Positions 1-58,645 of a stretch of 64,000 nt of DNA are shown one piece after another. Below the pieces are notes generated by a model, which saw only the letters and a list, made by a program, of their open reading frames with translations, was not told the origin of the DNA and did no database searches. Numbering within the stretch: position 1 is the stretch's first letter; every line of letters begins with the position of its first letter. The stretch comes from Candidatus Tagabacteria bacterium (lineage in GTDB: Bacteria > Patescibacteriota > Minisyncoccia > GCA-002779875). The position numbers and the translations under genes are program-made. The DNA is taken from NCBI GenBank assembly GCA_963820595.1, contig CAWGAO010000008.1:9857-73856 (forward strand), written 5' to 3'.

Positions 1-375
1 GCTCTGGGGAATCGACATCTTAACGGGATGGCTGAAACCCAAACTTAAAGCTAAGGCCGAACCTTCCTTTGTCGCGCGATAGCCGACTCCTTCGATTACA
101 AGGACTTTACTGAATCCTTTAGTAACGCCGTCAATCATATTGCGAACGTGAGAAGCGTAAGTTCCCCATAAAGAAACGGTCTCTTTGGCCCGTCTTATTT
201 TTTTTACCTTGTTTGGTTTCAAACTTATCATATCCGGGTTAACGGAAATGATAATGTCGTCTTTAAAATGCCGACTGGTTTCGCCAAGAGGACCTTTGAC
301 GGTCAATAATCCGTTTTCTATTTTTACGGAAACGCCCTCTGGAATCATGATTGGTTTTTTACCTAAACGCGACAT
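1..375 (-). CDS. rplF: 50S ribosomal protein L6, 3' end cut by window edge
   Basis: rc translation from ATG at 373-375 gives MSRLGKKPIMIPEGVSVKIENGLLTVKGPLGE..., typical L6 N-terminus; position downstream of rpsH. Confidence 0.85.
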   Translation of the reverse strand, partial: MSRLGKKPIMIPEGVSVKIENGLLTVKGPLGETSRHFKDDIIISVNPDMISLKPNKVKKIRRAKETVSLWGTYASHVRNMIDGVTKGFSKVLVIEGVGYRATKEGSALALSLGFSHPVKMSIPQS

Positions 376-573
376 GCCAAAATTATATGAACGTTAGTGA
401 ATAATAATTTTGAGCACCCGCCCAATTTTTTAACAACCCTATCAAACCGAAAAAGTCCAACATTTTGTTCCTATTCATTTTTTTATTTTTCATCATTGTT
501 ATCATAAAAATTTGGGCGGGTAAGGTTTTACAGTCGCGATTTGTCGCTTCGTTCCAAATCGCGAGTAAAGCCC
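376..573 (-). repeat. mosaic intergenic module: conserved leader box ending at rplF ATG, inverted arms (acccgcccaattttt / aaaatttgggcgggt), palindromic unit with GAACGAAGCGA loop next to rpsH stop
   Basis: repeated architecture seen ~20x in window; nested inverted repeats read directly. Confidence 0.7.
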
Positions 574-963
574 TTACCAAATCTTGCACAACACTTCGCC
601 TCCGACTTTTTCTTTAATTGCCTCTTTATTCGTCAAAAGACCTTTCGGCGTCGAAAGAATCGTCATACCGAAACCCTGCCTGATAGGTTTTATTTCTTTT
701 AGCGGCAGATAAACGCGGCACGAAGGTTTTGAAATGCGGGCGATATGGACAATCGCCGCTTTGCCATTTTCATCATAAGACAAAACCAGCTCGATTGTCT
801 TTTTATTCTTTTTTCCCCGCCGATTTATTTCTTTGATGTAATCGGTTCTTAAAAGAACCTTCGCAACCTCCATCTTTAATTTTGAATAAGGAATTACCAC
901 CGCTTCTTTTTTTACGGCTTGGGCATTTCTTATTTTTGTAAACATGTCGGCGATTGGGTCCAT
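574..963 (-). CDS. rpsH: 30S ribosomal protein S8
   Basis: ORF-track protein MDPIADMFTKIRNAQ... is canonical S8. Confidence 0.9.
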   Translation of the reverse strand: MDPIADMFTKIRNAQAVKKEAVVIPYSKLKMEVAKVLLRTDYIKEINRRGKKNKKTIELVLSYDENGKAAIVHIARISKPSCRVYLPLKEIKPIRQGFGMTILSTPKGLLTNKEAIKEKVGGEVLCKIW

Positions 964-1167
964 GCCAAAATTATATGAACGTTAGTGAATAATAATTTCG
1001 AGCACCCGCCCAAATTTTTGAATTTGTCTCTGCCGAATAAAAATATTCTGGTTGCCATTTTTCATATTTCATAAAATGTAAATCTTAAAGATAATTCAAA
1101 AACTTGTGGCGGGTAAGGTTTTACAGTCGCGATTTGTCGCTAACACTCCAAATCGCGGGCCAAGCCA
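964..1167 (-). repeat. mosaic intergenic module (leader box + covarying arms + palindromic unit)
   Basis: near-identical 50-nt leader to 376-427; arms cacccgcccaaattttt / caaaaacttgtggcgggt. Confidence 0.7.
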
Positions 1168-1353
1168 TTACCAGCTTGATTTCTTTACTCCAGGAATCCT
1201 GCCTTCGTTGGCGAATTCCCTGAAACAAATCCGGCACATGTCGAAATCGCGCATATAGCCTCTTTTTCTGCCGCAACGAAAACATCGCCGCACAACGCGG
1301 CTTTTGTATTTAGGCTTCTTTTGACTTCTTGCGATTACCGATGTCTTTGCCAT
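1168..1353 (-). CDS. rpsN: 30S ribosomal protein S14 type Z (zinc-binding, 61 aa)
   Basis: [33 protein letters not shown]...CRICFRE, CxxC..CxxC. Confidence 0.9.
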
Positions 1354-1439
1354 TTTTGTTTACGAGTGCTAGCGAGTAATTACAAAAATGAGCACCCCGC
1401 TCAAATTTTGCCGCGCTAATCACTCATTATTAATAAATA

Positions 1440-1685
1440 AAGATAAATGTTGTTTATCTCTCGCCGCCTGCGCGTCCCGAACCCCGCTACTATAAATCCT
1501 TCGGATTTAAGTACGGGGCGAGTAGCTTTTAACTACTCTTGGGCGACCTGCCCCGTAGGGAACGCGAAGCGTTATCCTTCGGGGAGCGGGCGGCTATTGC
1601 GCTTCCTCGCAAAATTTGTGCGGGGTCGCCATGTTCTAGAATATAACGGATTCCAGTTATTTTTGCAACACTGACTGAATAAAAT
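1440..1685. repeat. GC-rich structured repeat, copy of family containing CTACGGGGCAGGTCGCCC core (other copy 58380-58560)
   Basis: ~200 nt alignable to rc of 58400-58560 with compensatory substitutions in stems. Confidence 0.5.
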
Positions 1686-1693
1686 TTAAAGAG

Positions 1694-1772
1694 CTTGACC
1701 CCGTTAGAGGCAAGACGCCTTTGGCGTCTGCCGCATTTTCAATGCGGGCCTCTAACGGGGTTGACAAATTTT
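1694..1772 (+). mobile_element. MITE-like palindromic element (ccccgttagagg...cctctaacgggg) ending in outward TTGACA
   Basis: terminal inverted repeats; family of >=7 copies in window. Confidence 0.5.
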
Positions 1773-1829
1773 CCAGTTATGATAGCATAAAATCGGCTTG
1801 AAAAATCAAAACAAAAGGAGGCAAAAACA

Positions 1830-2153
1830 ATGAAAAAGATTGGAAAGATTCTGTTGCTAATTGCAATATTAGCAGTTTATTTGAACTTCGGATGGATGAT
1901 GGGCGCATATTACGCCGACCACGGCTTACCTAAAGCCGAGCAAGGAGTAACCACTTTAGGCAAATTTATATGCGGGCCAAATGCCTGGATGTCTAACGAA
2001 AGCGGGTCTCGTCTCTCGTGGTGTGTTATGTCCTCAATCTGCTGGCCCTTTGGGATGGTTATCTGCGGAGTTAGCTGGATTGTTTACGGCATTTATTATC
2101 TCCTCTGGTTCATTTTTGCCGGCGGAATTGTCAAAACCCTCGGCCTCATCTAA
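1830..2153 (+). CDS. small membrane protein (107 aa), antisense orientation inside the ribosomal operon
   Basis: SD aaaaggagg 8 nt upstream of ATG; two to three hydrophobic helices; followed by hairpin terminator. Confidence 0.6.
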   Translation: MKKIGKILLLIAILAVYLNFGWMMGAYYADHGLPKAEQGVTTLGKFICGPNAWMSNESGSRLSWCVMSSICWPFGMVICGVSWIVYGIYYLLWFIFAGGIVKTLGLI

Positions 2154-2182
2154 ATTAAATTTGACCTAAACCTGATTTAGGT

Positions 2183-2217
2183 CATTAAAAGCCTGCGCTC
2201 AAAAAGCCGGGCTTTTT
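2183..2217 (+). terminator. rho-independent terminator (aaaaagccgggcttttttt)
   Basis: GC stem plus T-run directly after ORF 1830-2153. Confidence 0.6.
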
Positions 2218-2220
2218 TTA

Positions 2221-2413
2221 TGATTGATTTTCTTAGCGAGCGAAGCGAGTTTTGAAAATCATCACCCCCTCTTTTACACTCTCACTCTGTTGCTTCTTTT
2301 TACCATAAGAAATTTTTTGCTTCAAACGCCGTTTAAAATATCCTCGTCTTGTCGTTGTTAAAAGAGGGGGTTCTCAAAAAATATAGTCGTCCCTCGACTT
2401 CGCTCGGGACTCC
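2221..2413 (+). repeat. inverted (+ orientation) copy of mosaic module: palindromic unit (GAGCGAAGCGA loop), arms accccctcttttac / gttaaaagagggggt, leader-like GGTTCTCAAAAAATATAGTCG, second palindromic unit abutting rplE stop
   Basis: direct reading; same order of parts as + strand modules at 41971-42171 and 44245-44488. Confidence 0.65.
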
Positions 2414-2953
2414 TTATTTTTTGGAAAATGGAAATCCTAAAAGGCGAAAAAGTTCAAGGGCTTCTTTTTTTGTTTTTGCGCTGGTGACTATCGTCGCCTG
2501 AAAACCAAAAATCATTTTGATTTCTTCTTCTCCTATTTCCGGAAATATCGTGTGTTCCTTGATGCCGATGCTAAAATTCCCCGCCTCGTCAACGGCATCC
2601 GGATTCAATCCCCTGAAGTCGCCGATTCGAGGAATGGCGATGGCAATGAGTCTGTCCAAAAAATCGTACATTCTCTGACCGCGCAAGGTAACCGAGTAGC
2701 CGGCGAGAGCGCCTTGGCGGATTTTGAAAGACGCGATTGATTTTTTGGCCGGCCGTTTTGCCGGTTTCTGCCCGGCAATCAAAGCCAATTGCTTTTCGAT
2801 AACCTCAATCTGCTTTTCGTCTTTAATGGAACCGACGCCCGTATTAACGACGACTTTAACGATTTTGGGAACGGCCATATCGTTTTTATATCCGAATTTT
2901 TCTTTCATCTTCGGAACCGCTATTTTTTTGTATTTTTCCTTAAGCATTTGCAT
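2414..2953 (-). CDS. rplE: 50S ribosomal protein L5
   Basis: protein ...GQKPAKRPAKKSIASFKIRQGALAGYSVTLRGQRMYDFLDRL... canonical L5. Confidence 0.9.
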   Translation of the reverse strand: MQMLKEKYKKIAVPKMKEKFGYKNDMAVPKIVKVVVNTGVGSIKDEKQIEVIEKQLALIAGQKPAKRPAKKSIASFKIRQGALAGYSVTLRGQRMYDFLDRLIAIAIPRIGDFRGLNPDAVDEAGNFSIGIKEHTIFPEIGEEEIKMIFGFQATIVTSAKTKKEALELFRLLGFPFSKK

Positions 2954-3137
2954 AATAGATTTTTTGAATGAGCGAAGTGAATTTTAGAAAATCATCACCC
3001 CGCCCTCTAAGCACAAATAATTCCTTTTAATTTTATTTCTTACATTAAACATCATCTTCGTAATTTCTCCAATTCTTCACGCATAGAGGGCGGGGTTCTC
3101 AAAAAATATATTCACTTCGTTCATTATTTTTTGGAAC
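2954..3137. repeat. bidirectional module: leader-like box facing rplE ATG on - strand and a second leader-like box facing + strand, arms accccgccctctaagcac / gcatagagggcggggt
   Basis: ATTCACT-containing leader on both sides of the arm pair. Confidence 0.6.
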
Positions 3138-3166
3138 TTGACAAATCTTTTTTTAATTGCTATAAT
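3138..3166 (+). promoter_or_regulatory. consensus sigma70-type promoter TTGACA-17-TATAAT
   Basis: exact hexamers with 17-nt spacer, 45 nt upstream of SD-bearing ORF at 3215. Confidence 0.6.
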
Positions 3167-3214
3167 TAAATTAGCTTGAAAATTGAATAACTTTTATCAA
3201 AGGAGGTGGCTTAA

Positions 3215-3460
3215 ATGAAGGTTGTAATTCCAACGGGGGTCATTTTGACTATTATCGGCTTTCTGGCGTTCAGCGGATTGCCGAATATTTGGCAAAAGAT
3301 CGTTATGTGGCTGCTGGTCGCGGGAACTTTGGTTGGCATGGTCATGATGGGCCGGTATTGTTCTATTTTTTGCCGTCGCAATCATTGTTTGGCCGATTAC
3401 GGCTTCTCTGAAGTCCTGCGTTCCCAAGAAATAGTCCTTACGCTTCCTTCAAATATTTGA
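3215..3460 (+). CDS. small membrane protein (81 aa)
   Basis: SD aaaggagg then ATG; hydrophobic helices. Confidence 0.5.
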   Translation: MKVVIPTGVILTIIGFLAFSGLPNIWQKIVMWLLVAGTLVGMVMMGRYCSIFCRRNHCLADYGFSEVLRSQEIVLTLPSNI

Positions 3461-3754
3461 CCCGCACTTTTTGCAAACGCGGGTCTTATTTTTTCCAAGA
3501 ACCTTATAACCGGCCCGTCTCGGTTTGTTGCAGGTCGGACAAATCAACATCACATTCGAAGCCCTTAACGGCATCGGCACCTGGATTACCTGCCCCTTTT
3601 GACCTTGCTTTTTTGAACGGCTGTGCTTTTTCCTTATATTCACTCCCTCAACTACGACAACATCGCCTGTCGGGAAAACTTTAAGAACTTTCCCGGTTTT
3701 TCCACGATCTTTTCCTGAAATTGCCATTACATTATCATTTTTGCGAATTTTCAT
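3449..3754 (-). CDS. rplX: 50S ribosomal protein L24 with C-terminal Cys4 zinc-ribbon-like tail
   Basis: MKIRKNDNVMAISGKDRGKTGKVLKV... KOW motif; tail CPTC...CKKC. Confidence 0.85.
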   Translation of the reverse strand: MKIRKNDNVMAISGKDRGKTGKVLKVFPTGDVVVVEGVNIRKKHSRSKKQGQKGQVIQVPMPLRASNVMLICPTCNKPRRAGYKVLGKNKTRVCKKCGSNI

Positions 3755-3782
3755 AAATTATTAATGGAGAACAGTTCTCCAT

Positions 3783-4154
3783 CTAAACAACCTCCGGCGC
3801 TAAAGAAATAATTTTCGCGTATCCCCGTTCGCGAAGCTCTCTGGGCATGGGCCCAAAAATACGGCCTGCTTTCGGCTCCTGAGTTTTCGCCTCAAGAATT
3901 ATCACGGCATTATCGTCAAAACGCACATACGAACCGTCTTTTCTGCGGTAAGGCTGGCGCTGACGGCAAACTACCGCTCTAAGCACATCTTTTTTCTTCA
4001 CTGCCTTTCTCGGCTCCGCGGATTTCACGGAAACAACCACAATGTCGCCTATGCGGGCATATCGCCTGCGGCTTCCGCCCGGCACTTTAATAACCTGCAC
4101 GAGTTTTGCCCCGCTGTTATCGGCAACACCTACCATTGAACGAGTTTGAATCAT
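3783..4154 (-). CDS. rplN: 50S ribosomal protein L14
   Basis: [24 protein letters not shown]... canonical L14. Confidence 0.9.
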
Positions 4155-4341
4155 GCCAAAATTATATGAACATTAGCGAATAATAATTTTGCGCACCGAG
4201 CACATAATTTATAGCAACCTTTTTATTAAGATGTTCGAAATTTTTACTAAATCTTTTTTTGAAACTTCACTAAATTTTTCATAAAATTATGTGCTCGGTA
4301 AAGGTTTGGCGCCTATATTTTCTCGTCTAAAACTCGAAAAT
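4155..4341 (-). repeat. mosaic intergenic module (leader box ending at rplN ATG; arms accgagcacataatttat / ataaaattatgtgctcggt; hairpin)
   Basis: arm sequence differs from other copies but the two arms still match each other. Confidence 0.65.
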
Positions 4342-4573
4342 CTAGGCCAATCCCTTTACTTCCCAATGCTTGCCTCTCGACCTTGGTTTTGTTTCCTGAA
4401 TTATCACTTTATCGCCGACCTTATACTCGTTTTTCTCATCGTGCGCCTTATAGCGTTTGCTTGCTTTTCATATATTTTCCGTAAAGAGGATGTTTTGTAT
4501 AGCGCTACACCTCAACGACAACCGTTTTTGCCATTTTATCGGAAACAACAACTCCTTTTAATTTCTTTGCCAT
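4342..4573 (-). pseudogene. rpsQ: 30S ribosomal protein S17, reading frame broken by an in-frame TAG and one frameshift (probably sequence error)
   Basis: rc translation MAKKLKGVVVSDKMAKTVVVEV*RYTKHPLYGKY...; after a 1-nt shift ...[32 protein letters not shown]; expected gene-order position between rpmC and rplN. Confidence 0.7.
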
Positions 4574-4673
4574 ATGATTGATTTTCTTAATGAGCGAAGC
4601 GAGTTTTGAAAATCATCACCCCCTTCTTTTCGCGCAAGCGCGCAAAAGGAGGGGGTTAAGAAAAACATAATCG
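4574..4673 (-). repeat. mosaic module, leader variant containing a palindromic unit (rc GAGCGAAGCGA loop) ending at rpsQ ATG
   Basis: arms aaccccctccttttgcgcgc / gcgcgaaaagaagggggtg. Confidence 0.6.
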
Positions 4674-4862
4674 CTATCGCTCTTTGTTTTTCATTAAAGT
4701 TATAATTCTCGCGATATCTTTTTTTATTTCACGGGCGGCTTTCGTATTTTTGATTTTGCCATGCCCCATCTCAAAACGGAATTTTCTCAAAGCCTCACGC
4801 TTGTCTTTTAGAAGAGCAGCAAGCTCAATTTCGGTTTTTTCTCTTAATTCTTTTATTTTCAT
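4674..4862 (-). CDS. rpmC: 50S ribosomal protein L29
   Basis: MKIKELREKTEIELAALLKDKREALRKFRFE... Confidence 0.85.
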   Translation of the reverse strand: MKIKELREKTEIELAALLKDKREALRKFRFEMGHGKIKNTKAAREIKKDIARIITLMKNKER

Positions 4863-5047
4863 GCCATAATTATATGAACGCTAGTGAATAATAATTTTCG
4901 CACCCCGCCTCTAACGCTTGCGCTCTTTTTATTAAATGATTATCTTGATATTTGCTTCATAATTTTTGTTTAAATTCGTGATAGAGGGCGGGTAAAGGTT
5001 TGGCAACAGAATTTTTCGCCTACGGCTCAAAATTCTGTCCAATTCGC
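4863..5047 (-). repeat. mosaic intergenic module (leader box at rpmC ATG; arms caccccgcctctaacgc / gatagagggcgggt; 3' hairpin)
   Basis: direct reading. Confidence 0.65.
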
Positions 5048-5467
5048 TTAATCTCTCGCAATGATTTTTGTTTTAATGGGAAGTTTTGCCGCGGCTTTTC
5101 GAAGGGCTTCGCGAGCTAAATTTTCCGGAATGCCGTCGATTTCAAAAAGCATCCGTCCCGGCTTAACCGGAACGACATAGCCAGCCGGGTCGCCTTTTCC
5201 GCCGCCCATAGTTACTTCCGGCGGCCGCTGGGTAATGGGTTTGTCCGGGAAAATGCGAATCCACATTCTTCCGCTTTTCTGGACGTAGCGAGTCATAACT
5301 TTTCGAACTGCCTCAATTTGCTGGCTGGTAATCCATTTTTCGCCTTCCGACTTAAGCCCGAAAGAGCCAAAAGCAAGAGTGGTCCCCCGGGTTGCCACTG
5401 TCGGCTTTGCGCGATTTGTCCTCCCGCGCTGCCATTTTCTGTATTTTACTTTCTTTGGATACAGCAT
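5048..5467 (-). CDS. rplP: 50S ribosomal protein L16 (start taken at MLYPKKVKYRK)
   Basis: ...KYRKWQRGRTNRAKPTVATRGTTLAFGSFGLK... canonical L16. Confidence 0.85.
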   Translation of the reverse strand: MLYPKKVKYRKWQRGRTNRAKPTVATRGTTLAFGSFGLKSEGEKWITSQQIEAVRKVMTRYVQKSGRMWIRIFPDKPITQRPPEVTMGGGKGDPAGYVVPVKPGRMLFEIDGIPENLAREALRKAAAKLPIKTKIIARD

Positions 5468-5621
5468 AAATACAAACTTTAGATTAGCAAAATAACCCTT
5501 ATCGCGCAAGCCCCATACATTCGTATGCGTTACGAGGTAAGTCCGTGTTTGCTTTTCTCGGATTTTCGTAGTAAAGATAAGAGAGAAAACTTCTTTTAAA
5601 AAACGGACGGAGGATACGTTA

Positions 5622-6176
5622 TTGTCCAGACATTATGAAAATAAAAAAAGACTCCGCCATTCTCGCAACCGCGGGGAAAAATACGATTCTCATCATCCTT
5701 ATCCGAATTCCAGGACGAAAAAAGGAGATTTTGGAAAATTCGAAGAGCTCCTTTGCTCATTAGAACTGAATACCCTGAAGAAAAAACACAGAGCCTGGCA
5801 CCAATTATTTCTCAATTTTTTTCCCGAAGAAGTGATTTTGGCGATAAAAAAAGCTTTCAGGGCGGGGAAAAAGACTCCTCCCGAAATAATCTCTTTTATC
5901 AAGACTACTCTCGGCCACAGCCAAACTCCGATTGAAGCGACCAAGGCGGATCTGGAAGCCTGGTCCAAGATATTCGGCGCTCGCCAAAACCCGGATAAAA
6001 TTAAGAAAATCATTTTTGAAAACTGGACTTATCCCGACGTCAGAACCATTATCACTAACGGCAAAATTACCAGCGTACTGGTCTTTCTCCCTCGCATACC
6101 AAAAGACCTTGAAATCAGCGTCATCGTTTCCAAAAAAAGCGCGCATTTAAAAATCAGCGAAAAAATTAAAACTTGA
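5622..6176 (+). CDS. hypothetical protein (184 aa), TTG start with SD ggacggagg
   Basis: best-supported ORF among overlapping candidates; no recognisable domain. Confidence 0.4.
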   Translation: MSRHYENKKRLRHSRNRGEKYDSHHPYPNSRTKKGDFGKFEELLCSLELNTLKKKHRAWHQLFLNFFPEEVILAIKKAFRAGKKTPPEIISFIKTTLGHSQTPIEATKADLEAWSKIFGARQNPDKIKKIIFENWTYPDVRTIITNGKITSVLVFLPRIPKDLEISVIVSKKSAHLKISEKIKT

Positions 6177-6223
6177 TAAAGTTTTAAAAAAGAGCGGCCA
6201 ACCATTGAGACGCTCTTTTCTAT

Positions 6224-6598
6224 TTATATCTTTTTCTCTTTCTCCCATTTTTTTTCAAGGCGGGCGATTGCCGCTTCGCCGAATCCGAAATGATGGCCGA
6301 TTTCGTGCCAAACCACTCTGCGGACCATCCGCCTCAATTCTTCAATATCGTGAACGCTCTTTTCGATTGTTGTTTTATAAATAGTGATTTTATCGGGCAA
6401 AACCATATAATAATTCACTCCACGCTGTGTTTGAGGAATACCATGGTAAAGCCCGAGAAGATTTCTTCCCGGCGCTTCGCCTTCTTCCAAAACTATCGCC
6501 ACATTTTTCATTTTCTTCCGAATGGATTTCGGCAACGCTTCCACCGCCTCAACAACTAATTTTTCGAATTCGTCTTTATCCATAAAATCAATCGGCAT
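6224..6598 (-). CDS. zincin-like metallopeptidase family protein (HEIGHHFG motif)
   Basis: WHEIGHHFGFGE motif near C-terminus, ~124 aa, resembles the small 'possible zinc metallopeptidase' family. Confidence 0.6.
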   Translation of the reverse strand: MPIDFMDKDEFEKLVVEAVEALPKSIRKKMKNVAIVLEEGEAPGRNLLGLYHGIPQTQRGVNYYMVLPDKITIYKTTIEKSVHDIEELRRMVRRVVWHEIGHHFGFGEAAIARLEKKWEKEKKI

Positions 6599-6646
6599 AA
6601 TTTTATAGAGAAATTATACTAAATAGTTTAGAATATTAACATTGCC

Positions 6647-7820
6647 ATGTTTGGACTTATTCAACAACTTTTTATAAAAATCGTGTCGGCTATAGCGGGT
6701 CTTATTATCGCCGTCGGCATTGTTCAGATGCCGACTTATGTTTCAGAATACAAAACACCTCCCCATAACAATGCACCCGAAAACATAGCAACGCGGGAAA
6801 TTACGCCGACATCGCAAAAAAGCGGAAAATAATAATTTTGTTCTCCCAAACGAAAATATTTCCCGCCGCCTCGACTACATCTTCTGTTCCGAACAAACGC
6901 AAAAGACAACGCCGGCCGCGCCAGCCGCGCCGACTATTTCCCTAACCGAACTGAATAAACAAGCCAGAAAAACCATTGTTAATATTATTTGCACCAATAA
7001 GGCCGGCGGGCCATTTAATCCGATAACGGGAAGCGGAGTTATCATCAGCCCTAAAGGAGTGATTTTGACTAACGCCCACATCGGCCAGTATTTTCTTTTG
7101 GAAAATTCGCCGGAAGCGGGATATCTGGATTGCACCATCCGCAACGGCGACATCGCCCAGCCTGCTTACGACGCCAAACTTATTTACATTCCTTCTGCTT
7201 GGATTGAAGAAAATGCCGCCAACATTATTCAAGAGGAACCGAAAGGAACAGGAAAAAATGATTACGCTTTCCTACTCATCACCAAATCCATTATCGAAGA
7301 AAAAGAGCTCCCTGCCTCGCCGGCAGGCGGGCCGCCGACTTTCGATTTCACCGAACCGAATTTTGATTTCAATGTCCTTCCTTTTAATTTCCAGGTTCTT
7401 TTAGCGAGCTATCCCGCCGGCTTTATCGGCGGCATCGAAATCCAGAAAGATCTCGGCCTTACATCAACTTTCGCGCCCGTAATCGACTTCTACACTTTCG
7501 CGACGACCGGGCCGGCGACTCTTGACCTGTTTTCGCTCGGCGGAAACATCGTCGCCCAAGGCGGCTCATCCGGCGGCGCGGTCGTAGATACGAGAGACGG
7601 AAAACTGCTTGGGATAATAACGACCTCGAGCGATGCGACGACGACCGCCGGCCGCGTTTTAAACGCCATCACCGTGCCCTATATCAGGCATACTTTTGAA
7701 AAATATACGGGAGACAGTCTTTCTTACTTTATAGACGACCCTGAAACATACGATGTTTTGCCTTCCGCCGAATTCAATCGCATCAAACAGCTTTTAATCG
7801 ACCAGTTGAATAAACTTTAG
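6647..7820 (+). CDS. membrane-anchored trypsin-like serine protease, apparent frameshift near 6790-6830
   Basis: N-terminal signal anchor ORF; after a frame change ...GVILTNAHI... and ...GGSSGGAVVD... (GDSGG-like active-site region). Confidence 0.6.
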
Positions 7821-16654: not shown

Positions 16655-17368
16655 GTGAAGCACAGACTGGTAATTTTTGGATTTATTATTTTTGTTTTTT
16701 CGATGATGGCTTTCGACACATGGATGTTTAGTTTAGCCTTCGGAGCGGAAAGACCGGCCGATAAAACAATTATTCTCAATTTTGACGATGGGCCGAAGCC
16801 AGCTGTTATAAAAAAACTTCTGCCAATCTTAGAAACATATAACGTCAAAGTTTCTTTCTTTGTTGAAGGTGCTATCGCGGCAGCAAATAAAGAACTCATT
16901 AAAGAGATGCACGGCAAAGGCCATGCAATCGAAAACCACAGTTGGGGACACGAAAAATTCAAAAAATTTTTCCGCGAAAAAGGCGCGGAAGCCGTAAAAT
17001 CCAACTTGAATAAAACAAGCGAGGCAATTTTTCAGGCTACCGGCGAATATCCAAAATATTTCCGGCCGCCTTATTGGCAAATAGACGAAGAGATTGAACA
17101 AATCGTAAAATCTCTAGGTTATAAGATTATGAAAATGGACAATCCCGACATCAATACTTTGGATTACGAAGATGCCGATAAACATCGCTCGCCCGAAGTT
17201 CTTATTGAAAGAGTGAAAAAAATTATCGCCGACCGCGAACGCCAAGGAAAATTTAATCACGTTTTAGTATTCCATGAATTAATGATAACGACCGAGGCCC
17301 TAAAAACCCTCATTCCCTATTTTCAAAACCAAGGCTATAAATTCGTGCGCCTTGATGAAAAATATTGA
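16655..17368 (+). CDS. polysaccharide deacetylase (NodB-homology) family protein
   Basis: FDDGP and HSWGH motifs; N-terminal membrane anchor. Confidence 0.75.
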   Translation: MKHRLVIFGFIIFVFSMMAFDTWMFSLAFGAERPADKTIILNFDDGPKPAVIKKLLPILETYNVKVSFFVEGAIAAANKELIKEMHGKGHAIENHSWGHEKFKKFFREKGAEAVKSNLNKTSEAIFQATGEYPKYFRPPYWQIDEEIEQIVKSLGYKIMKMDNPDINTLDYEDADKHRSPEVLIERVKKIIADRERQGKFNHVLVFHELMITTEALKTLIPYFQNQGYKFVRLDEKY

Positions 17369-17399: not shown

Positions 17400-17640
17400 T
17401 CTTTTTCTAAAAATCAAGGAGCGTAAGCGACTATGATTTTTGAGAACCCCGCCTTAATTTTACCGTCCACATGTAATCTAAGTTCAGAGAATTAAAAAGT
17501 TTTATTTGCTTGTTGCGAGGCGCGGACGGCGAATAGCCGCACCCCTGCCTGCCGGCAGGCAGGCCTTTTGCGCGAAGCGCCGAGCCGATACATTGGATTG
17601 TAAAATTAAGGCGGGGGTGGATTTACAAAAATTTTTTCGC
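17400..17640 (+). repeat. mosaic module copy (palindromic unit with GAGCGTAAGCGA loop; arms ccccgccttaatttta / taaaattaaggcgggggtg)
   Basis: direct reading; not next to a translation gene. Confidence 0.55.
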
Positions 17641-22159: not shown

Positions 22160-22285
22160 GTAGTCCCGATAATTCTAAATTTGAATTATCGAGGATCCTC
22201 GATTTTCTAGCGAAAATCGGGATGAAATGGACCCCGAAGTATAAACCTTCGGTTTAACTACGGGGCAGGTATCACTTAAAAATAA
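22160..22285 (+). ncRNA. structured leader upstream of tRNA-Arg (three-way stem arrangement, shares aactacggggcaggt with repeat family at 1440/58380)
   Basis: outer stem cccctgtagt/actacgggg enclosing two hairpins; preceded by TTGTCA-16-TAAAAT. Confidence 0.35.
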
Positions 22286-23903: not shown

Positions 23904-24044
23904 AAGAACGCGGGCTGGAGTCCCGACGCGCTTCGCGGTCGGGGTCCCGACTGAAACGTCGGGATATGATGGCATCCCCGAAGGAGTCGCCTTCGGCGAC
24001 CCTACGGGGAAAATCGGGACACGCCACGCCCGCCCACCTTTTAT

Positions 24045-30500: not shown

Positions 30501-30553
30501 ATCTTTCTACCTCCTTGTAGAATTAGTGCTTAGCATCTCCGGCAAGCCCCGTT

Positions 30554-30657
30554 AGAAGTTCAACTATAGCTTGAGATTAAGCATCCTCCGAAAGCGAATC
30601 CGCCTAATGGCTCTATCTCTAACTAAAATATAATTTATTGAAAACCTCTAACGGGGC
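30554..30657 (+). mobile_element. MITE-like palindromic element, tandem copy 1
   Basis: ccccgttagaag...cttctaacgggg termini; internal aagcgaatccgcctaatggc. Confidence 0.55.
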
Positions 30658-30730: not shown

Positions 30731-30852
30731 AACCCCGTTAGAAGTTCAGCTATGGTCTGGAGTTAAGCAACCTCCTAAAGCGAATCCGCCTAACGGCTTT
30801 GTTTTTAAATAAAATATGGGTTAGATGAAAACTTCTAACGGGGTCAACCCCC
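30731..30852 (+). mobile_element. MITE-like palindromic element, tandem copy 2 (~90% identical to copy 1)
   Basis: same termini and internal block. Confidence 0.55.
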
Positions 30853-40884: not shown

Positions 40885-40994
40885 CTCGTGTTGACAATAA
40901 AAGATTTATTTTTTAGTATAAACTTAACACTTGTGAAAATTTAATATGAGAGTTGCTGGTTTTTTTATTGCCAAAATATACTTACCAAATAATT

Positions 40995-41408
40995 ATGCCC
41001 ACGATTCACCAGTTAATTAAAAAAGGACGGAAAAAAATATCGAAAAAGTCAAAAGCGGTGGTTCTCCAGCGCGGTTTTAACGTCATCAAAAACCGGCCGG
41101 TTTTTTATCCTTCGCCTTTTAAACGCGGCGTCTGTATTAAAGTGACGACTATGACCCCAAAAAAGCCGAACTCTGCCATTCGCAAAGTGGCGAGGGTCAG
41201 ACTCACGAATGGAATGGAAGTTACCGCCTACATTCCGGGCATCGGCCATAATTTGCAGGAACACGCGGTTGTTCTTCTGCGAGGCGGCCGCGTCAAGGAT
41301 TTGCCGGGAATTCAATACCACATTGTCCGAGGAATTCTTGATGCCGCAGGAGTAGAAGGACGAAAAAAACAGCGTTCGGCATACGGAACTAAGAAACCGA
41401 AAAAATAA
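40995..41408 (+). CDS. rpsL: 30S ribosomal protein S12 (with ~13-aa insertion relative to E. coli)
   Basis: [14 protein letters not shown]...KRGVC...[23 protein letters not shown]. Confidence 0.9.
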
Positions 41409-41502
41409 TGAATTCGCCCGCGATTTTGAGCGAAGCGAAGAATCGCGGTTACAAAATGCGAAAACATTAAATTATTAGTCGTTTAACTCCTTAATTTTTG
41501 GC
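41409..41502 (+). repeat. minimal module: palindromic unit (GAGCGAAGCGA loop) + AT-rich leader ending at rpsG ATG, without arm pair
   Basis: cccgcgattttgagcgaagcgaagaatcgcgg ... taactccttaatttttggcATG. Confidence 0.6.
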
Positions 41503-41970
41503 ATGAGAAGAAAAATCAGAGTAAAATACAAATTAAATCCAGACCCGCTTTACGACTCGAAAAAAATCGAGAAATTTACCAATTACCTGATGTGGAAAGG
41601 AGAAAAATCCGTTGCTCGTGAAATCGTCTATCAAACTTTTGAAGAAATAAAAAAGAAAATAAAAGCAGATCCGATTGCGATTTTCGAAAAAGCGATTGAA
41701 AATGTTTCACCTATGATTGCAGTGCGCTCCCGAAGAGTCGGAGGCGCCACCTATCAGGTTCCTAGAGAAATTCCTCCTGAAAAACGCATAGGCTTCGCAA
41801 TGCGCTGGATAATTCTGGCGGCGCGGTCAAAAAAAGGCAAAAATATGTCCTATCGGCTTTCGGAAGAACTTATTGCGGCTTCTAAAAACGAAGGAGCAGC
41901 CGTTAAAAAAAGAGAAGATACTCATAAAATGGCCGAGGCTAATCGCGCTTTCGCTCATTTTGCTTGGTAA
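41503..41970 (+). CDS. rpsG: 30S ribosomal protein S7
   Basis: canonical S7. Confidence 0.9.
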   Translation: MRRKIRVKYKLNPDPLYDSKKIEKFTNYLMWKGEKSVAREIVYQTFEEIKKKIKADPIAIFEKAIENVSPMIAVRSRRVGGATYQVPREIPPEKRIGFAMRWIILAARSKKGKNMSYRLSEELIAASKNEGAAVKKREDTHKMAEANRAFAHFAW

Positions 41971-42171
41971 TGACTTTGCTCGCTATTTGGAGCGTTAGCG
42001 ACAAATTGCGGCCGCAAAACATTACCCGCCTAAGTTTTTGCGAAATAATTAAAATATGAAAAATCTAAAAAAGAAAAATTTTCAAAAATTTAATTCGTCT
42101 TTGGAGTATACCCGCAAAAATTTGGGCGGGTGTTCAAAAATTATAGTCATTAACATTCCTTAATTTTTAGC
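41971..42171 (+). repeat. mosaic module (palindromic unit, arms cgcctaagtttttgcg / cgcaaaaatttgggcg, leader GGTGTTCAAAAATTATAGTCATTAACATTCCTTAATTTTTAGC-ATG)
   Basis: direct reading. Confidence 0.65.
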
Positions 42172-44244
42172 ATGGCACGCGAATACCCTATAGAAAAAAC
42201 AAGGGATATAGGCATTATTGCCCATATTGATGCCGGTAAAACTACTGTTTCCGAGCGGGTGCTTTTTTATACCGGCGTTTCTTATAAAATCGGCGAAGTG
42301 CACGAAGGAGCGGCGATAATGGATTGGATGGAACAAGAACGGGAAAGAGGCATTACTATTACGGCCGCCGCCACGACCTGTTTCTGGCTAAATCACCGCA
42401 TCAATATTATCGACACGCCCGGCCATATCGACTTCACGGTCGAGGTACAGCGCTCATTGCGCGTCTTAGACGGCGGAGTCGTGGTCTTTGACGGCGTGGC
42501 CGGCGTTGAACCCCAATCCGAAACCGTCTGGCGACAGGCGGATAAATACAAAGTCCCGCGCATTTGCTTCGTCAATAAAATGGACCGGATGGGCGCCAGT
42601 TTTGAAAAAAGTTTTAATTCCATTCTCGAACGGCTTACTCCAAACGCCGTTGCATTAAATATTCCCATCGGCGCTGAATCGGAATTTGAAGGCGTTATCG
42701 ATCTTTATAAGATGAAAGCAATTTATTTCGAAGACGAACACGGAGAAAAAATAGTGGAAAAAGAAATACCGGAAAAATTAAAAGCGGACGCGGAAAAATG
42801 GCGCAAGCTGATGATCGAAAAAATCGCCGAGACCGACGACCATCTTCTTGAACAATATTTGAATAATCAGGAGCCGCCGGTTGAAGAATTAAAAAAAGCG
42901 TTAAGAAAAGCTTGCCTCGAATATGCTCTTGTTCCTGTTTATTGCGGTTCGGCTTTGAAAAACAAAGGCGTACAACCCATGCTCGACGGCGTTGTTGATT
43001 ATCTTCCGAGCCCGGTTGACCTGCCAGCCGTCAAAGGCATCGAACCTAATTCACACAAAGAAACCACTCGCGAAGCAAAAGATGACTCTCCTTTTACCGC
43101 TCTTGCTTTCAAACTTCAAACCGACCTTTACGTTGGGCAACTCACCTATTTTAGAGTCTATTCCGGCAATCTTGACGCGGGTTCCTATGTGTACAATGCC
43201 ACTACCGACACGAAAGAAAGAATCGGGCGAATCCTGCGGATGCACGCCAACCACCGCGAAGAAGTAAAAGAAGTCTTTGCCGGCGACATCGCCGCGACCG
43301 TAGGCCTTAAAAACACCCACACCGGCGACACGCTCTGCGATCCGGACCATCCGATAGTTTTGGAAAAAATCGAATTTCCGGAACCCGTCGTTTCTCTCCG
43401 CATCGAACCGAAAACAAAAGCCGATCAGGAAAAAATGGGTCTGGCTTTAAAGCGCCTTTCCGACGAGGACCCGACCTTCAGGATTAAATCTGATCCTGAA
43501 ACTATGGAAACCATTATCTCGGGCATGGGAGAACTTCATCTGGAAATCATCGTCGATAGAATGAAAAGAGAATTTAAAGTGGACGCAGGCGTCGGAAAAC
43601 CCCAAGTTGCCTACAAAGAAACCATAACCGCCGAAGGCGAGGCCGAAGGAAAATATATCCGCCAATCGGGTGGAAGAGGCCAATATGGTCACGTCCGCAT
43701 CAAGACAGAACCTCTTGAAAGAGGCAAAGGTTTTGAATTTATCAATTCCATAAGAGGAGGCATCATCCCCCAGGAATTTATTCCGGCCGTCGAGAAAGGA
43801 GTGAAAGAAGCGTTGGACCGCGGAGTCGTGGCGGGTTTCCCGATAGTGGACCTTTCGATCGAACTTTATGACGGCTCCTATCACGAAGTCGACTCTTCGG
43901 AAATGGCTTTCAAGATCGCCGGCTCCATGGCTTTGCAGGAAGGCGTCAGGCGCTCCAAACCGATTCTGCTCGAACCGATTATGAAAGTGGAAGTCGTTAC
44001 CCCGGAAAAGTTTTTAGGAGACGTTGTCGGAGATTTGAACTCGAAACGCGGCCACATCTTGAACATGACCGACAGGTTCAACCTTAAAGTCATCGACGCG
44101 AAAGTGCCACTTTCGGAAATGTTCGGCTACGTCACTTCTTTGCGCTCAATGACGGAAGGCCGGGCCACTTATACCATGGAATTCGACCGCTACGAGCGGG
44201 TTCCGGAAAATATCGCCCAATTAATTAAAGAAGGGAAAAAATAA
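42172..44244 (+). CDS. fusA: elongation factor G (690 aa, intact)
   Basis: [17 protein letters not shown], full-length domains. Confidence 0.95.
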
Positions 44245-44488
44245 TGGCTTGGCCCGCGATTTGGAGTGAAGCGACAAATTGCGGTTGCCAAATATTACCC
44301 CGCCCTTTTGGGCGCGAGATGTTATAATAAAACTATGGATATATTAAGTTTAAAAATTATAAAACGGCAATGCGCTTTAGTTATAACGGGATGCGCCTAT
44401 TCGGCGCCCGCGCATTGCGGAATTGAGTATGGCGCCAAAAGGGCGGGGTGCTCAAAAATTATAGTCGCTTAACTCCTTAATTTTTGGC
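44245..44488 (+). repeat. mosaic module (palindromic unit GGAGTGAAGCGA loop; arms ccccgcccttttgggcg / cgccaaaagggcgggg; leader ending at ATG 44489)
   Basis: direct reading. Confidence 0.65.
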
Positions 44489-44587
44489 ATGTCTGACGAC
44501 CAAGAACAAAAAGAAAAACTTTTCTCCGAAGAGGCCTTAGAAGACGATTTGGAAATCGAAGCAGATGTAGAAAGTTTGCCACTTTAA
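44489..44587 (+). CDS. small acidic peptide (32 aa) with its own module leader
   Basis: MSDDQEQKEKLFSEEALEDDLEIEADVESLPL; leader identical in type to rpsG/fusA leaders. Confidence 0.3.
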   Translation: MSDDQEQKEKLFSEEALEDDLEIEADVESLPL

Positions 44588-44954
44588 TTTGACAGGAATT
44601 ATCTTTTATGATAAGCTCTTACCAGAAAAATAAGGGCTTTTTTATCGCCCAAAATCTTTGAAAAAGGAGGAAAGAAATGAAAAGGATATTGGCTATAATT
44701 AAGGTTCTTGACTGTCTGTGCTATTTTAATCTGGTTTTTATTGCTTGGACGCCATATTGGGACATCTTATTTGGGAGGGCCAAAAGATGACTTTCTATAC
44801 CGACAGAGCATAGAATTATTCTACATTTATGGGATTCCCTTTTTCTCTAGTGTTCTGGTTTATTCTTTTCCGCACTGGGAAAAATGTTGAAAAGGAGAAA
44901 ATAGTGTTAGCGATAAGCGGCCTCGCGGGTCGCTGAAATCGCCAAAAATGAGGC

Positions 44955-45010
44955 AGACCGTTCGACAAGCTCACGGCAAGTCGAAAAACGGTCTGCCTTT
45001 TTATTTTTAT
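44955..45010 (+). terminator. strong terminator ggcagaccgtt...aacggtctgcc + T-run
   Basis: 11-bp stem. Confidence 0.7.
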
Positions 45011-45193
45011 TGTTTATTTACGTCACCGCAAAACGTAAAAAAACGATTTTTGGAATTAAGGCAGGTGTGGAAAATCTCTCATTATAAGGGACTTGACGAC
45101 TTAGACTGTCTTCTATAAGATAAGACTATTGCGTGTTTTTCGCGCTTTTTAATTAAAAGGTTTAATAAATAATAGTTTAAATTCAATAAAAAT

Positions 45194-49669: not shown

Positions 49670-49865
49670 AGGAATTTGCACGCGATTTTAAGCATCAGCG
49701 AAAAATCGCGCTTGCAAAACCTTTATCCCGCCCTCTATGCATAAATTTAAAGAAAAAATATGAAGCAAAACATCAAACCAGTAATTACAAAAGAAAAGAG
49801 CGCGAACCGCTTAGAGGGCGGGGTGCTCAAATTTAATTATTCACTAACGTTCATATAAATTTGGC
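49670..49865 (+). repeat. mosaic module (palindromic unit AAGCATCAGCGA loop; arms cgccctctatgc / gcttagagggcgg; leader box ...ATTCACTAACGTTCATATAAATTTGGC-ATG)
   Basis: direct reading. Confidence 0.65.
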
Positions 49866-50199: not shown

Positions 50200-50378
50200 G
50201 GAGCGACAGCGACTCTATTTTTCTTAACCCCGCCCTCTAGGCACAAAAAATTGAAAAAAATATGAAAAAAATGCACAATACGAAAATTAATATCGAAGAG
50301 AATTGCTCGCGCTTAGAGGGCGGGGTTCTCATAATTTCAGTTAAATTTTATTCATTTCATTCTAAAATTTAAGAAATT
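50200..50378 (+). repeat. mosaic module (palindromic unit GAGCGACAGCGA loop; arms ccgccctctaggcac / gcgcttagagggcgggg; leader variant)
   Basis: direct reading. Confidence 0.6.
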
Positions 50379-53353: not shown

Positions 53354-53459
53354 TTTTCCAACCTCCTTTTTTAAAACAACTTTTCAAATCAAGCATACTA
53401 CAATACATAGAATTGTAAAGAAGCCATTGGTTTTTCTTTCAAAAAAATATAAAATAAAC

Positions 53460-53759
53460 TTAGAAAAATAAGAAGCCTAAGCGACTATATTTTTCTAACC
53501 CCCTCTTTTACACACAGCTTTTTAGTTAAAGTTTAATAATTTATTTGATATAATAAAAAAGTGGTTTGTTTTCCGAAATTAAATTTAGTGTTAAAAGAGG
53601 GGGTGCTCAAAATTACCGCGCCCGACTTCGCCTCGACGTTTCAAGTTAAAAAATAAAATGAATATGAAAAGACAATATACAAATAAAATTGAAATTATTA
53701 TCAAGGCGTCGAAGTCGAGGCGGGCGGGTTATTCACTAACATTCATATAATTTTGGCGG
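53460..53759 (+). repeat. mosaic module with a second perfect ~20-bp-stem hairpin element nested inside the leader box
   Basis: leader interrupted between AAAATTA and TTATTCACT by ccgcgcccgacttcgcctcgacg...cgtcgaagtcgaggcgggcgg. Confidence 0.6.
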
Positions 53760-57083: not shown

Positions 57084-57301
57084 AATTTTTAAAAATTTTA
57101 GAACGGAGTGAATAAAATTTTTGTAAAATTATGAGCACCCCGCACTAATTTTGCTGTATTATTCTTATAAAAATTTTATTTCTTACAAGCTCGATATTAC
57201 TCTCGCAGTTCGCGCGCCGCGAATAGCGGCATCCCTTATTGGGCGAAGCGGACTGCCATTTTTATACCCCGCAAAATTTAGTGCTGGGGTCGCCATAATT
57301 T
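57084..57301 (-). repeat. mosaic module supplying leader box to the Fic/Doc gene (arms ccccgcactaattttgc / gcaaaatttagtgctgggg)
   Basis: rc GGGGTGCTCATAATTTTACAAAAATTTTATTCACTCCGTTCTAAAATTTTTAAAAATT-ATG. Confidence 0.55.
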
Positions 57302-58379: not shown

Positions 58380-58645
58380 CCCCGGCACCAATTTTGCGTG
58401 ATATTTCACGGCGAAGCGCTCCCCGAAGTATCCGCCTCCGGCGGAACTACGGGGCAGGTCGCCCTAACTCTAGTGGCTACTTGCCCCGCATAATCGCGTA
58501 GCGATTTGTGCGGGGTTCGCCGCACGCGCTTCGCAAAAATTGTTCTTATTTCCCGCCTATAAAGCGCCTAGCAACAAAAAAGTGGCAAAATTGATGCGGG
58601 GTGCCCAAAAATTATAGTCGTTTCACTCCTTAATTTTTGGCAAAT
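58380..58645 (+). repeat. degenerate module (no ATG at leader end) whose spacer carries copy B of the GC-rich structured repeat
   Basis: arms accccggcaccaattttgcg / gcaaaattgatgcggggtg; leader ends ggcaaata instead of ggcatg. Confidence 0.55.

Follow-up and report, generated by a model that had tools for sequence, protein, structure and literature searches.

In some Parcubacteria, composites of hairpins and inverted repeats occupy the entire gap between the stop codon of one operon gene and the start codon of the next. We analyzed such composites in a window of 64,000 nt (contig CAWGAO010000008.1 of assembly GCA_963820595.1, positions 9,857-73,856 of the forward strand). Ribosomal protein S8 places the window in Parcubacteria (Candidate Phyla Radiation, CPR, or Patescibacteria), and its closest species representative by S8 is a 'Candidatus Tagabacteria' metagenome-assembled genome, L001, at 74% identity. 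A conserved box that ends at start codons in this window had been taken for the promoter of leaderless mRNAs. We find that the box is probably hairpin B, the terminal hairpin on the side of the gene, in small, quasi-palindromic selfish elements that form a family. The best explanation, to which we assign a probability of about 55%, is an insertion element that carries short relay open reading frames (ORFs) and is linked to the host gene by termination-reinitiation coupling.

Reading of both strands (minus strand 1-7300; plus strand 40900-50900 and 53050-53850) confirmed that the box is a repeated unit ending at the start codon. Type 1 stands on the sense strand before the ATG of all six genes for which it had been claimed, rplF, rpsH, rplN, rpmC, rpsS and hydB, and type 2 precedes rpsG, fusA and an acidic ORF, likewise as described. 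Before rplF, rpsH, rplN, rpmC and rpsS, the end of the type-1 box, GGGCGGG(G)TGCTCAAAATTATTATTCACTAACGTTCATATAATTTTGGC, lies one base from the ATG; before the hydB-like gene (Fer4_22) at 53760(+), which reads GG-ATG, it lies 3 nt away. The N-termini that follow are canonical (MSRLGKKPI in L6, MDPIADMF in S8, MIQTRSMVG in L14), and these ATGs are therefore the true starts. When the arms of the window were scored with a covariance model of the boxes, type-1 and type-2 copies obtained E = 5e-16 to 2e-5. The 12-mer GGGTGCTCAAAA, allowing up to two mismatches, occurs 17 times where 7.4 occurrences are expected, a count that none of 100 shuffles attains. The original prediction overlooked that the box is an inverted repeat and merely the right arm of a composite of 100-250 nt, that more variants precede rpsQ, rplE, rpsN, rplV and a Fic gene, and that type-2 arms also occur inverted, at gene 3' ends. 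The type-2 motif CUCCUUA, which had been likened to the 16S 3' tail, is present, but it is simply the reverse complement of UAAGGAG: arms of this family at gene 3' ends, in the opposite orientation, read GAAAAAUAAGGAG…, where UAAGGAG is visible, and this explains the motif.

The TATAAT hexamer of the box is the 3' strand of an 11-bp hairpin. The G-rich repeat arm, GGGCGGG, comes before the type-1 stem, GC(U)CAAAAUUAU/AUAAUUUUGGC. Of the stem cells in 24 aligned copies 96.6% are paired, and five pairs show double changes; in 36 copies from more lineages, whose model-fitted alignment leans toward the stem, 96.9% of cells are paired and double changes occur at 10 of the 11 pairs. Alignments slid out of register reach at most 51% pairing, and 0 of 500 shuffles equal the observed values. 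Most often the covariation exchanges TATAAT for TATAAA. At the closing pair, the 3' base of which is -1 of the gene, most copies have G:C, with A:U in locus L081 and U:A in L102 and L103, and in the rpsN, rplV and Fic variants the host ATG itself is inside the stem. At locus L093 (699-753, minus strand), a single A→G change converts TATAAATTTGGC to TATGAATTTGGC, and a yqeY-like gene starts inside the 3' arm of the hairpin; the end of the element has been co-opted there as coding sequence.

Every intergenic block folds into three helices. The upstream stop codon lies in the base of hairpin A; a short linker (AAACCUUUA) comes next, then the C-rich and the G-rich arm on either side of a loop, a single U, hairpin B and, after 0-4 nt, the AUG. 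The base of hairpin A holds the stop codon within UAAAGG…CCUUUA, and at its top is a GNRA-like motif with tandem G·A (GAGCGAAGCGA, with relatives that covary). The central stem, CCCGCCCUCUA…UAGAGGGCGGG, is replaced by other sequences in other copies, yet pairing is kept; the A-rich loop inside it varies and measures 60-135 nt. The box itself is an inverted repeat, CAAAATTAT…ATAATTTTG in type 1 and CAAAAATTA…TAATTTTTG in type 2. Within the window we count ~20 arms; composites, 100-300 nt long, number at least 15 and, being small, multicopy and built on inverted repeats, resemble MITEs (miniature transposable elements with inverted repeats). Inverted doublets of the palindromic unit around a spacer, as in REPINs, are present as well.

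We compared the gene junctions with those of L001 and of two relatives, L122 and L123, whose S8 is 80-84% identical. The rpsN-rpsH junction reads TAA-aat-ATG in L001 and TAA-aaattt-ATG in L122, and fusA is joined to the acidic ORF in L001 by TAA-tt-ATG. In L123, the rpsH-rplF and rplP-rpmC junctions are TAA-tcc-ATG and TAG-aaaatt-ATG, and rpsQ and rplN overlap as ATGA; the rpmC-rpsQ junction of a relative is TAA-c-ATG. Thus the junctions compared measure 0-6 nt in L001 and L123 and, at rpsN-rpsH, 6 nt in L122; the exceptions are at rpsH-rplF, with 32 nt in L001 and a different 81-nt insertion in L122, and at rpsN-rpsH, with a different 133-nt insertion in L123. These near-empty junctions argue that the 100-250-nt blocks of the window are insertions into an ancestrally tight operon.

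The two different insertions in the relatives (L123 4776-4908, rpsN-rpsH; L122 628-708, rpsH-rplF) are other, unrelated-looking hairpins, e.g. GTTCTAATTG…CAATTAGAAC AAGCGAAGCGA. Intercistronic palindromic insertion seems to be a general habit of the clade.

A metagenome scan with the 3' half of type 1, excluding the ATG, gave 24 loci (17 distinct) from many samples; the scan pattern spanned the hairpin loop, so that loop conservation among these copies is partly ascertainment. An ATG follows the box by 1-4 nt at all 24 loci, the intervening bases being C, CAT, CAC, CAGC, T or AAT. The host genes are dnaK (twice), groEL, rpsH (twice), rpsS, rpsL, rpmJ, rpsU, yqeY, nusG, rpoB, ftsX, pilT, scpB and two membrane-protein genes. 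At two loci S8 is, by eye, ~75% and ~50% identical to that of the window, so distinct lineages have a nearly identical box. Many loci have a compact form, in which the central stem is reduced to a GC hairpin of 6-8 bp whose loop measures 3-4 nt. With both strands searched, all 30 of 30 type-1 arms point toward a start codon. The box model found no convincing copy in 1.35 Mb around S8 of 80 species representatives.

Some copies carry a nuclease gene. In L081 (also in L085, L086 and L091), the central-stem loop before rpoB holds a 96-aa ORF with a GIY-YIG domain (PF01541, E = 2e-15). Its family has 256 members, with named sources mostly in the CPR (Giovannoni-, Wolfe-, Portnoy-, Colwell- and Liptonbacteria). 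Via five related proteins we surveyed seven loci, representing six distinct insertion sites and 4 distinct hairpin B sequences. All seven share one layout: stop codon, hairpin A, AAAGCCTTTA, left repeat (CCCCGTTAGATGAAAATTATGCA), GIY-YIG gene, right repeat (TGCATAATTTTCTATCTAACGGGG), T, hairpin B (GCTCAATT…AATTGGC) and ATG. The cassettes lie between co-oriented genes, e.g. pheS/pheT, dnaB/recR, rpmF/nusB, pilC and type IV secretion genes, as well as before rpoB. The outer repeat bases and the junction CGGGGTGCTC are common to these copies and to the ORF-less copies of the window, which would be miniature derivatives multiplied in ribosomal-protein, EF-G and hydrogenase operons.

The encoded proteins, 82-86 aa (~83) in length, consist of the catalytic domain only. 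As in free-standing homing cassettes, the GIY-YIG ORF lies between conserved co-oriented genes and is present or absent among relatives. In L087 a cassette with other repeats sits at the start of grpE, with (T)ATG on both sides and the nuclease ORF reading from the left ATG; grpE in L094 is without it. In L113 the element ends in GGCATG, though no real gene begins there. From both cases it seems that the ATG may be part of the element or of its target. Full-length copies differ from MITEs in encoding a GIY-YIG nuclease domain and no known transposase. They differ from REPIN-RAYT systems in that the flanked gene is GIY-YIG (PF01541) and not a Y1 (HUH) RAYT, a comparison confined to the flanked gene, as RAYT genes elsewhere in the genome were not searched for.

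The loops of many composites contain sense-strand relay ORFs that start with ATG(A/G)A… and run through the G-rich arm and hairpin B to a TAA inside 'TATAAT' (type 1) or 'CCTTAAT' (type 2). Those in L082, L088, L097, L099 and L101 behave in the same way. An ATG-initiated ORF of at least 25 aa that ends no more than 10 nt before the host ATG occurs in 9 of 15 large-loop composites, compared with 0.97 expected from dinucleotide shuffles of the loops (Poisson-binomial P≈3e-8), although several loops are homologous, so that the cases are not all independent and the true significance is lower. Over 13 composites, the longest ATG-initiated ORF averages 33 aa on the sense strand versus 12 aa on the antisense strand (Wilcoxon p=8.5e-4). 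Between rpsG and fusA the ORFs form a chain: a 29-aa ORF opens at TAATG of the rpsG stop and overlaps as ATGA a 35-aa ORF, which ends in TAA-N8-ATG at fusA. The homologous composite of L082 contains a single 65-aa ORF, from TAATG to 7 nt before pilT; frame-shifting indels separate the two, yet both stop 7-8 nt before the ATG. The relay ORFs of L099 and rplF are an in-frame 3-nt indel apart, and in L097 a 30-aa ORF that begins in an ATGA overlap with trmD spans a compact composite.

The nuclease-encoding copies have a relay ORF of their own, M(M/I)(H/Y)NFLSNGVLN…, which overlaps the nuclease stop in a different frame, its start lying ~10 nt ahead of that stop. In 5 of the 7 loci, across four different hairpin B sequences, 5-11 nt separate its end from the host ATG. 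Altogether, an upstream stop within ~10 nt of a start that lacks a Shine-Dalgarno (SD) sequence, as in termination-reinitiation coupling, is found in 9 of 15 large composites, in those five loci, in L097 and in L088. Relay peptide sequences are not conserved between loop families; what is retained seems to be translation and the position of the stop. Differences between the L099 and rplF relay ORFs number 2, 6 and 9 at codon positions 1, 2 and 3, too few for significance.

These observations suggest a model in which the element is transparent to the operon. No U-run follows the GC hairpin, which is not an intrinsic terminator; since the element lacks U-run terminators while canonical ones exist in these genomes, operon transcripts would include it. 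One or two short relay ORFs, whose starts often overlap the preceding stop (TAATG or ATGA) or are an AUGAAA in the loop, would be translated by ribosomes that come from the end of the upstream gene or that load in the A-rich loop. This translation would melt the right repeat and hairpin B. A UAA, supplied in type 1 by 'UAUAAU' itself, would end the relay 5-9 nt short of the host AUG, and at that AUG the ribosome would re-initiate without an SD. Through relay and re-initiation, an insertion would leave the translational coupling of essential operons intact. The hairpins and repeats probably also serve the spread of the element, possibly as nuclease substrates.

Several points weigh against this model. 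Co-transcription and re-initiation are steps that we infer from sequence, and mobility is deduced from presence/absence and copy number only. Comparison of the window sites with the empty sites of L001, L122 and L123 revealed no target-site duplication, a few intergenic nucleotides being replaced; tblastn found no GIY-YIG remnant in the loops of the window, and the window has neither a nuclease gene nor a transposase gene. Compact L084, L089, L090, L093, L094, L096 and L098, and the rplN, rpmC and rpsN copies of the window, contain no ATG-initiated relay ORF, and ORF-less compact copies stand before essential genes, so the relay cannot be obligatory. The ribosomal-protein genes that we read in L001 and L123 lack an SD without any element, and generic AU-rich initiation may be enough for host genes. 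Stem mismatches are symmetric, with five G·U versus five A·C, and sense and antisense folding energies are similar; on these grounds the stem could act in either RNA or DNA, and an assignment to RNA from wobble and energy asymmetry was dropped for this reason. Finally, tuf, rpsS and rpsQ are interrupted in the assembly by frameshifts or a nonsense codon, which makes single ORF calls fragile.

The elements could instead be purely selfish DNA. Hairpins and repeats would then serve only spread, as DNA hairpins or cruciforms recognised by the nuclease or a host enzyme. Contact with the ATG would follow from scant intergenic space or from an ATG in the target or element end; host genes would be translated by ordinary SD-independent, AU-rich initiation, and the small ORFs would be remnants or counter polarity. 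The strand symmetry of wobble and energy, type-2 arms in both orientations, nested insertions, the GGCATG end of L113 without a gene start, the TATG on both sides of the L087 cassette, the SD-less genes of L001 and L123 and the many compact copies without a relay ORF all agree with this view. It leaves unexplained why type-1 arms point toward start codons without exception, why sense ORFs that end 5-9 nt before the ATG exceed both shuffles and the antisense strand, and why relay ORFs are kept through frame-changing indels. On balance we consider it unlikely.

A role in RNA punctuation appears improbable. The element would be a processing or stability module, cut in the central stem by an RNase III-like activity or at the 3' base of hairpin B, with hairpin A protecting the upstream 3' end and hairpin B or a 5'-terminal AUG left on the downstream RNA. 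Central stems of 12-20 bp flanked by two hairpins would suit such cleavage, but compact copies have only the 6-8-bp GC hairpin with its short loop, too short for RNase III. The stem of hairpin B closes exactly at -1, but the linker from stem to ATG varies between 0 and 4 nt. Tandem G·A pairs and GNRA-like loops lie on the sense strand of hairpin A, but stem stability is without strand asymmetry. The lineage is apparently able to translate 5'-terminal AUGs, and there are precedents in Correia elements, which are cut by RNase III, and ERIC elements, which modulate RNase E decay (PMC10969869). Punctuation gives no reason, however, for sense ORFs that end before the ATG.

The original reading, in which TATAAT is a -10 element and transcription by RNA polymerase begins at the A of the ATG or no more than 3 nt from it to give each gene its own leaderless mRNA, is very improbable. 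TATAAT-N6-ATG does occur in four window copies, rplF, rpsH, rplN and rpmC, but rpsS has TATAAA and hydB has N8. The distance from hexamer to ATG, 6 or 8-9 nt in all 24 metagenome copies, is in the usual start-site range, and MITEs such as Correia can bring promoters (PMC10969869). Covariation of the hairpin speaks against a promoter: TATAAA, in which the critical -7 T is lost, is found in 9 of 23 distinct type-1 copies (~40%), and the 5' arm compensates in 8 of these 9. Types 2 and 3 are without a -10, and variants linked to GIY-YIG genes have N4 (L105 and L109) or no hexamer (L116). The point change in L093 that put the start codon in the 3' arm would not be tolerated by a -10 box. In L092 and L098, where the box gene is the first after a terminator, both the GC hairpin and the box have candidate -10 hexamers upstream (by eye, with a poor -35); if used, these would place the box in the 5' untranslated region.

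Leaderless-type promoters are evidently used in the lineage, and they do not look like the box. The predicted TAAAAT-N6-ATG before rpsJ (46533) and hydA (61895) was confirmed, with the -35 elements TTGAAA at 16 nt and TTGCAC at 17 nt, respectively; a third site, 33783(-), combines TTGTTA, N16-17 and TAAAAT-N6-ATG. In relatives (L001, L083, L122), complete promoters lie 7-8 nt before the ATG of rpsN and rplE. At the box, as had been noted, there is no convincing -35 (AAATTA, AATTAT or AAAATT 16-18 nt upstream), nor an extended -10 (TG), and a promoter scan of the window listed none at the boxes, though the box may contain a weak internal promoter. Genes rpsJ, hydA and 33783 are predicted to be leaderless, and leaderless expression in this organism is plausible via ordinary promoters rather than the box. 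As reported, GGAGG is absent before box-preceded genes and several initiation modes coexist, other genes using GGAGG (e.g. 3215, 1830, 44678 and 53353(-)). Since genes without a box in L001 and L123 lack an SD, as does the ~65-nt leader of rpsL in the window, the absence of an SD does not imply a leaderless mRNA; it is a trait of the lineage and not of the box.

The sigma-70-like promoters with TAAAAT 6 nt before the ATG span 46513-46547(+) at rpsJ, 61873-61909(+) at the hydA-like gene and 33824-33781(-). The first loop of the hydB composite (~53526-53556) has a sigma-70-like promoter of another form, TTAAAG-N17-TATAAT with TG.

Other identities were rejected. A phage origin finds no support, as neither the type-1 nor the type-2 pattern occurs in 2.9 million viral contigs. 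Against Rfam 15, the window yields only three tRNA matches at gathering score, and nothing credible at E≤5 over 1-5200. The loop TTCAC/GTTCA misfits the T-loop consensus (A58) of a tRNA-like RNase Z substrate, and ARAGORN finds nothing. With the consensus of rrn boxA (TGCTCTTTAACAA) or CIRCE the box has only TGCTC in common, and the gene set of ribosomal proteins, chaperones, pili and ftsX fits neither. Complementarity of the loop to the 16S 5' domain (GAUGAACGCUAGCGG), suggestive by eye, was set aside: the region is buried in the ribosome, hairpin A loops have the motif in the other sense, and the window contains no 16S gene.

Among known systems, the element recalls REP/REPIN sequences with their RAYT transposase, reportedly described by Nunvar in 2010 and by Bertels and Rainey in 2011 as palindromic inverted doublets that flank a small nuclease-type gene. 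Inverted palindromic doublets around a spacer, many ORF-less intergenic copies, a flanked nuclease-type gene and the lack of a target-site duplication are common to both. In contrast to REP/REPIN, the protein of the element is a ~83-aa GIY-YIG domain and not Y1 HUH, the arms, 45-65 nt long, are not uniform, the copies are found inside operons between a stop and a start codon, and there are relay ORFs. The relay, for its part, recalls a synthetic leader, the 'bicistronic design' said to come from Mutalik in 2013, of which the element would be a natural counterpart. Unlike that design, the predicted relay leader comes with a repeated insertion and lacks an internal SD.

The relay also resembles termination-reinitiation coupling, the subject of a review (PMC12548453): a short upstream ORF ends a few nucleotides from an SD-less start, TAATG or ATGA overlaps occur, and translation of the leader would melt the start structure. 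Promoters of leaderless mRNAs, a subject of work on mycobacteria (PMC4633059, PMC3898074), likewise have a -10-like hexamer 6-8 nt before the ATG and no SD; the box differs in having neither a -35 nor an extended -10, in the unconserved -7 T, in the position of its hexamer in a covarying stem and in sister variants without the hexamer. Bacterial MITEs (Correia, ERIC, BOX, Rickettsia RPE and Chunjie) are also small AT-rich palindromic repeats co-transcribed with neighbours. Some supply promoters or RNase sites, RPEs are translated in frame, and Chunjie lies in an operon without disturbance (PMC10969869). The element departs from them in showing no terminal direct repeats, in having an autonomous partner other than an insertion-sequence transposase, and in being flush with stop and start codons.

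Free-standing GIY-YIG homing genes such as the T4 seg genes also lie between conserved co-oriented genes and are patchy among relatives, and RNA hairpins and translational coupling with neighbours are known for them (PMC2988022). Unlike seg, the CPR protein is without a DNA-binding domain, and the element has 24-bp inverted repeats, outer hairpins and ORF-less miniatures at many sites in one genome. Insertions with GIY-YIG ORFs are known from CPR rRNA genes; they are not group I or II introns, are scattered and are not obviously homing (PMC11270868). They share with the element the phylum and GIY-YIG ORFs in non-intron insertions, but lie inside rRNA genes; the two may be related.

We found no earlier description of these intercistronic elements in the literature covered, and as that coverage was limited a prior description is possible. 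We propose only tentatively, as a possibility that we regard with some doubt, that they form a previously undescribed operon-safe mobile element: a minimal GIY-YIG cassette with inverted repeats and two terminal hairpins that lands at stop/start junctions, possibly using or duplicating an ATG, brings its own translational relay, and has spread miniatures through ribosomal-protein, chaperone and replication operons of several Parcubacteria lineages. If this is true, a selfish element persists in the most constrained operons of extremely streamlined CPR genomes through translational transparency. Relay ORFs that preserve coupling would be an added function: the section consulted of the 2024 MITE review gives promoters, integration host factor (IHF) sites, RNase sites, gene disruption and sRNAs, with no translational relay among them (PMC10969869). 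The element would also provide the first biological context for the abundant ~83-aa CPR GIY-YIG proteins annotated as 'excinuclease ABC subunit C'. Such elements could be mistaken for promoters or regulatory RNAs.

Table 1. Boxes, hairpin variants, composites and a relay ORF of the window, with strand and remarks
Feature	Position	Strand	Remarks
Type-1 box, rplF	376-427	-	ATG 375..373; 83.5 bits, E=5e-16
Type-1 box, rpsH	964-1015	-	
Type-1 box, rplN	4155-4206	-	
Type-1 box, rpmC	4863-4913	-	
Type-1 box, rpsS	49813-49865	+	TATAAA
Type-2 box, rpsG	41452-41502	+	
Type-2 box, fusA	42120-42171	+	
Type-2 box, acidic ORF	44438-44488	+	
Hairpin B variant before rpsN	1354..1405	-	ATG within stem (CAUUUUUGU/ACAAAAAUG); 24 bits
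Hairpin B variant before Fic/DOC gene	57084..57148	-	ATG within stem
Lone type-2 arm	58591..58644	+	3' side of minus-strand gene 58688-58993; no ATG after
Composite rpsH-rplF	376..573	-	hairpin A ~525-570, C-rich arm ~507-521, variable loop, G-rich arm ~422-436, hairpin B
Relay ORF, rplF	383..505	-	40 aa (MITMMKNKKMNRNKMLDFFGLIGLLKNWAGAQNYYSLTFI); begins in loop, ends at TAA of 'TATAAT', 7 nt before ATG
Composite rpsN-rpsH	964..1167	-	hairpin B 964-1015; 33-aa relay ORF 1072..971 ends 7 nt before ATG; left end TAATG
Composite after rplE stop	2205..2413	-	left arm long type-2 reversed, right arm type 3; no gene after
Composite before rplE	2954..3140	-	type-3 hairpin ending at ATG; internal 23-aa ORF 3055..2984
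Composite rpsQ-rplN	4155..4339	-	hairpin B 4155-4206; central stem CCGAGCACAUAAUUU/AAAUUAUGUGCUCGG differs but pairs; no long relay ORF
Compact composite rpmC-rpsQ	4574..4673	-	type-3 hairpin ending at rpsQ ATG (4573..4571)
Composite rplP-rpmC	4863..5047	-	hairpin B 4863-4913; relay ORF broken (MKQISR*)
Composite at 3' end of gene 16655-17368	17403..17620	+	type-2 arm in stop-codon orientation, 17-bp central stem; no gene start after
Compact composite rpsL-rpsG	41409..41502	+	hairpin A directly joined to type-2 hairpin B; 20-aa ORF 41408-41470 from TAATG
Composite rpsG-fusA	41971..42171	+	two relay ORFs cover all: 41970-42059 (from TAATG) and 42056-42163 (ATGA overlap; 35 aa), ending 8 nt before fusA ATG
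Composite fusA-acidic ORF	44245..44488	+	18-bp central stem; relay ORF 44244-44327 from TAATG; ORF 44335-44472 ends 16 nt before ATG
Composite rplB-rpsS	49670..49865	+	hairpin B TATAAA; 32-aa relay ORF 49760-49858 ends 7 nt before ATG
Composite rpsS-rplV	50200..50378	+	hairpin B variant, ATG in stem; 36-aa relay ORF 50262-50372 ends 6 nt before ATG
Composite before hydB-like gene	53458..53759	+	type-1 hairpin B split by nested palindromic insertion ~53616-53727; 30-aa relay ORF 53658-53750 ends 9 nt before ATG

The interruptions of host genes comprise one frameshift needed in each of tuf (45194-46388, plus strand) and rpsS (49866-50199, plus strand), and an in-frame TAG (VEV*RY) together with a frameshift in rpsQ (4573-4340, minus strand); they are most likely assembly errors rather than biology. 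The database copy of S8 (P0121; 574-963, minus strand) begins six codons late, at MFTKIRNA, and gene callers apparently mis-place starts beside SD-less, box-preceded genes. The acidic ORF directly after fusA (44489-44587, plus strand; 32 aa) is conserved at 9073-9171 of L001 (…EEDLEIEADVESLPL / …GEDLEIEADVENLPL) and has no Pfam match.

Two more families of repeats are present in the window. Palindromes of the form CCCCGTTAGAG…CTCTAACGGGG lie at 1700-1770(-), 30547-30631, 30733-30817 and 46445-46510; the arms look like the inverted repeats on either side of GIY-YIG genes from other Parcubacteria (CCCCGTTAGAT…ATCTAACGGGG), and the palindromes are probably a second family of ORF-less derivatives. 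Repeats of the form CCCCGAAG…CUACGGGGCAGGUCGCC, in a GC-rich block of ~180 nt, occur at 1480-1660(-), 22232-22270, 23976-24014 and 58421-58459; two copies are just upstream of tRNA-Arg and tRNA-Pro, and the family has no Rfam match. Antisense to the ribosomal-protein cluster run two small hydrophobic ORFs, 3215-3460(+) of 81 aa and 1830-2153(+) of 107 aa, which have no Pfam match; each has a strong GGAGG, and one is preceded by a perfect TTGACA-N17-TATAAT (3138-3166).

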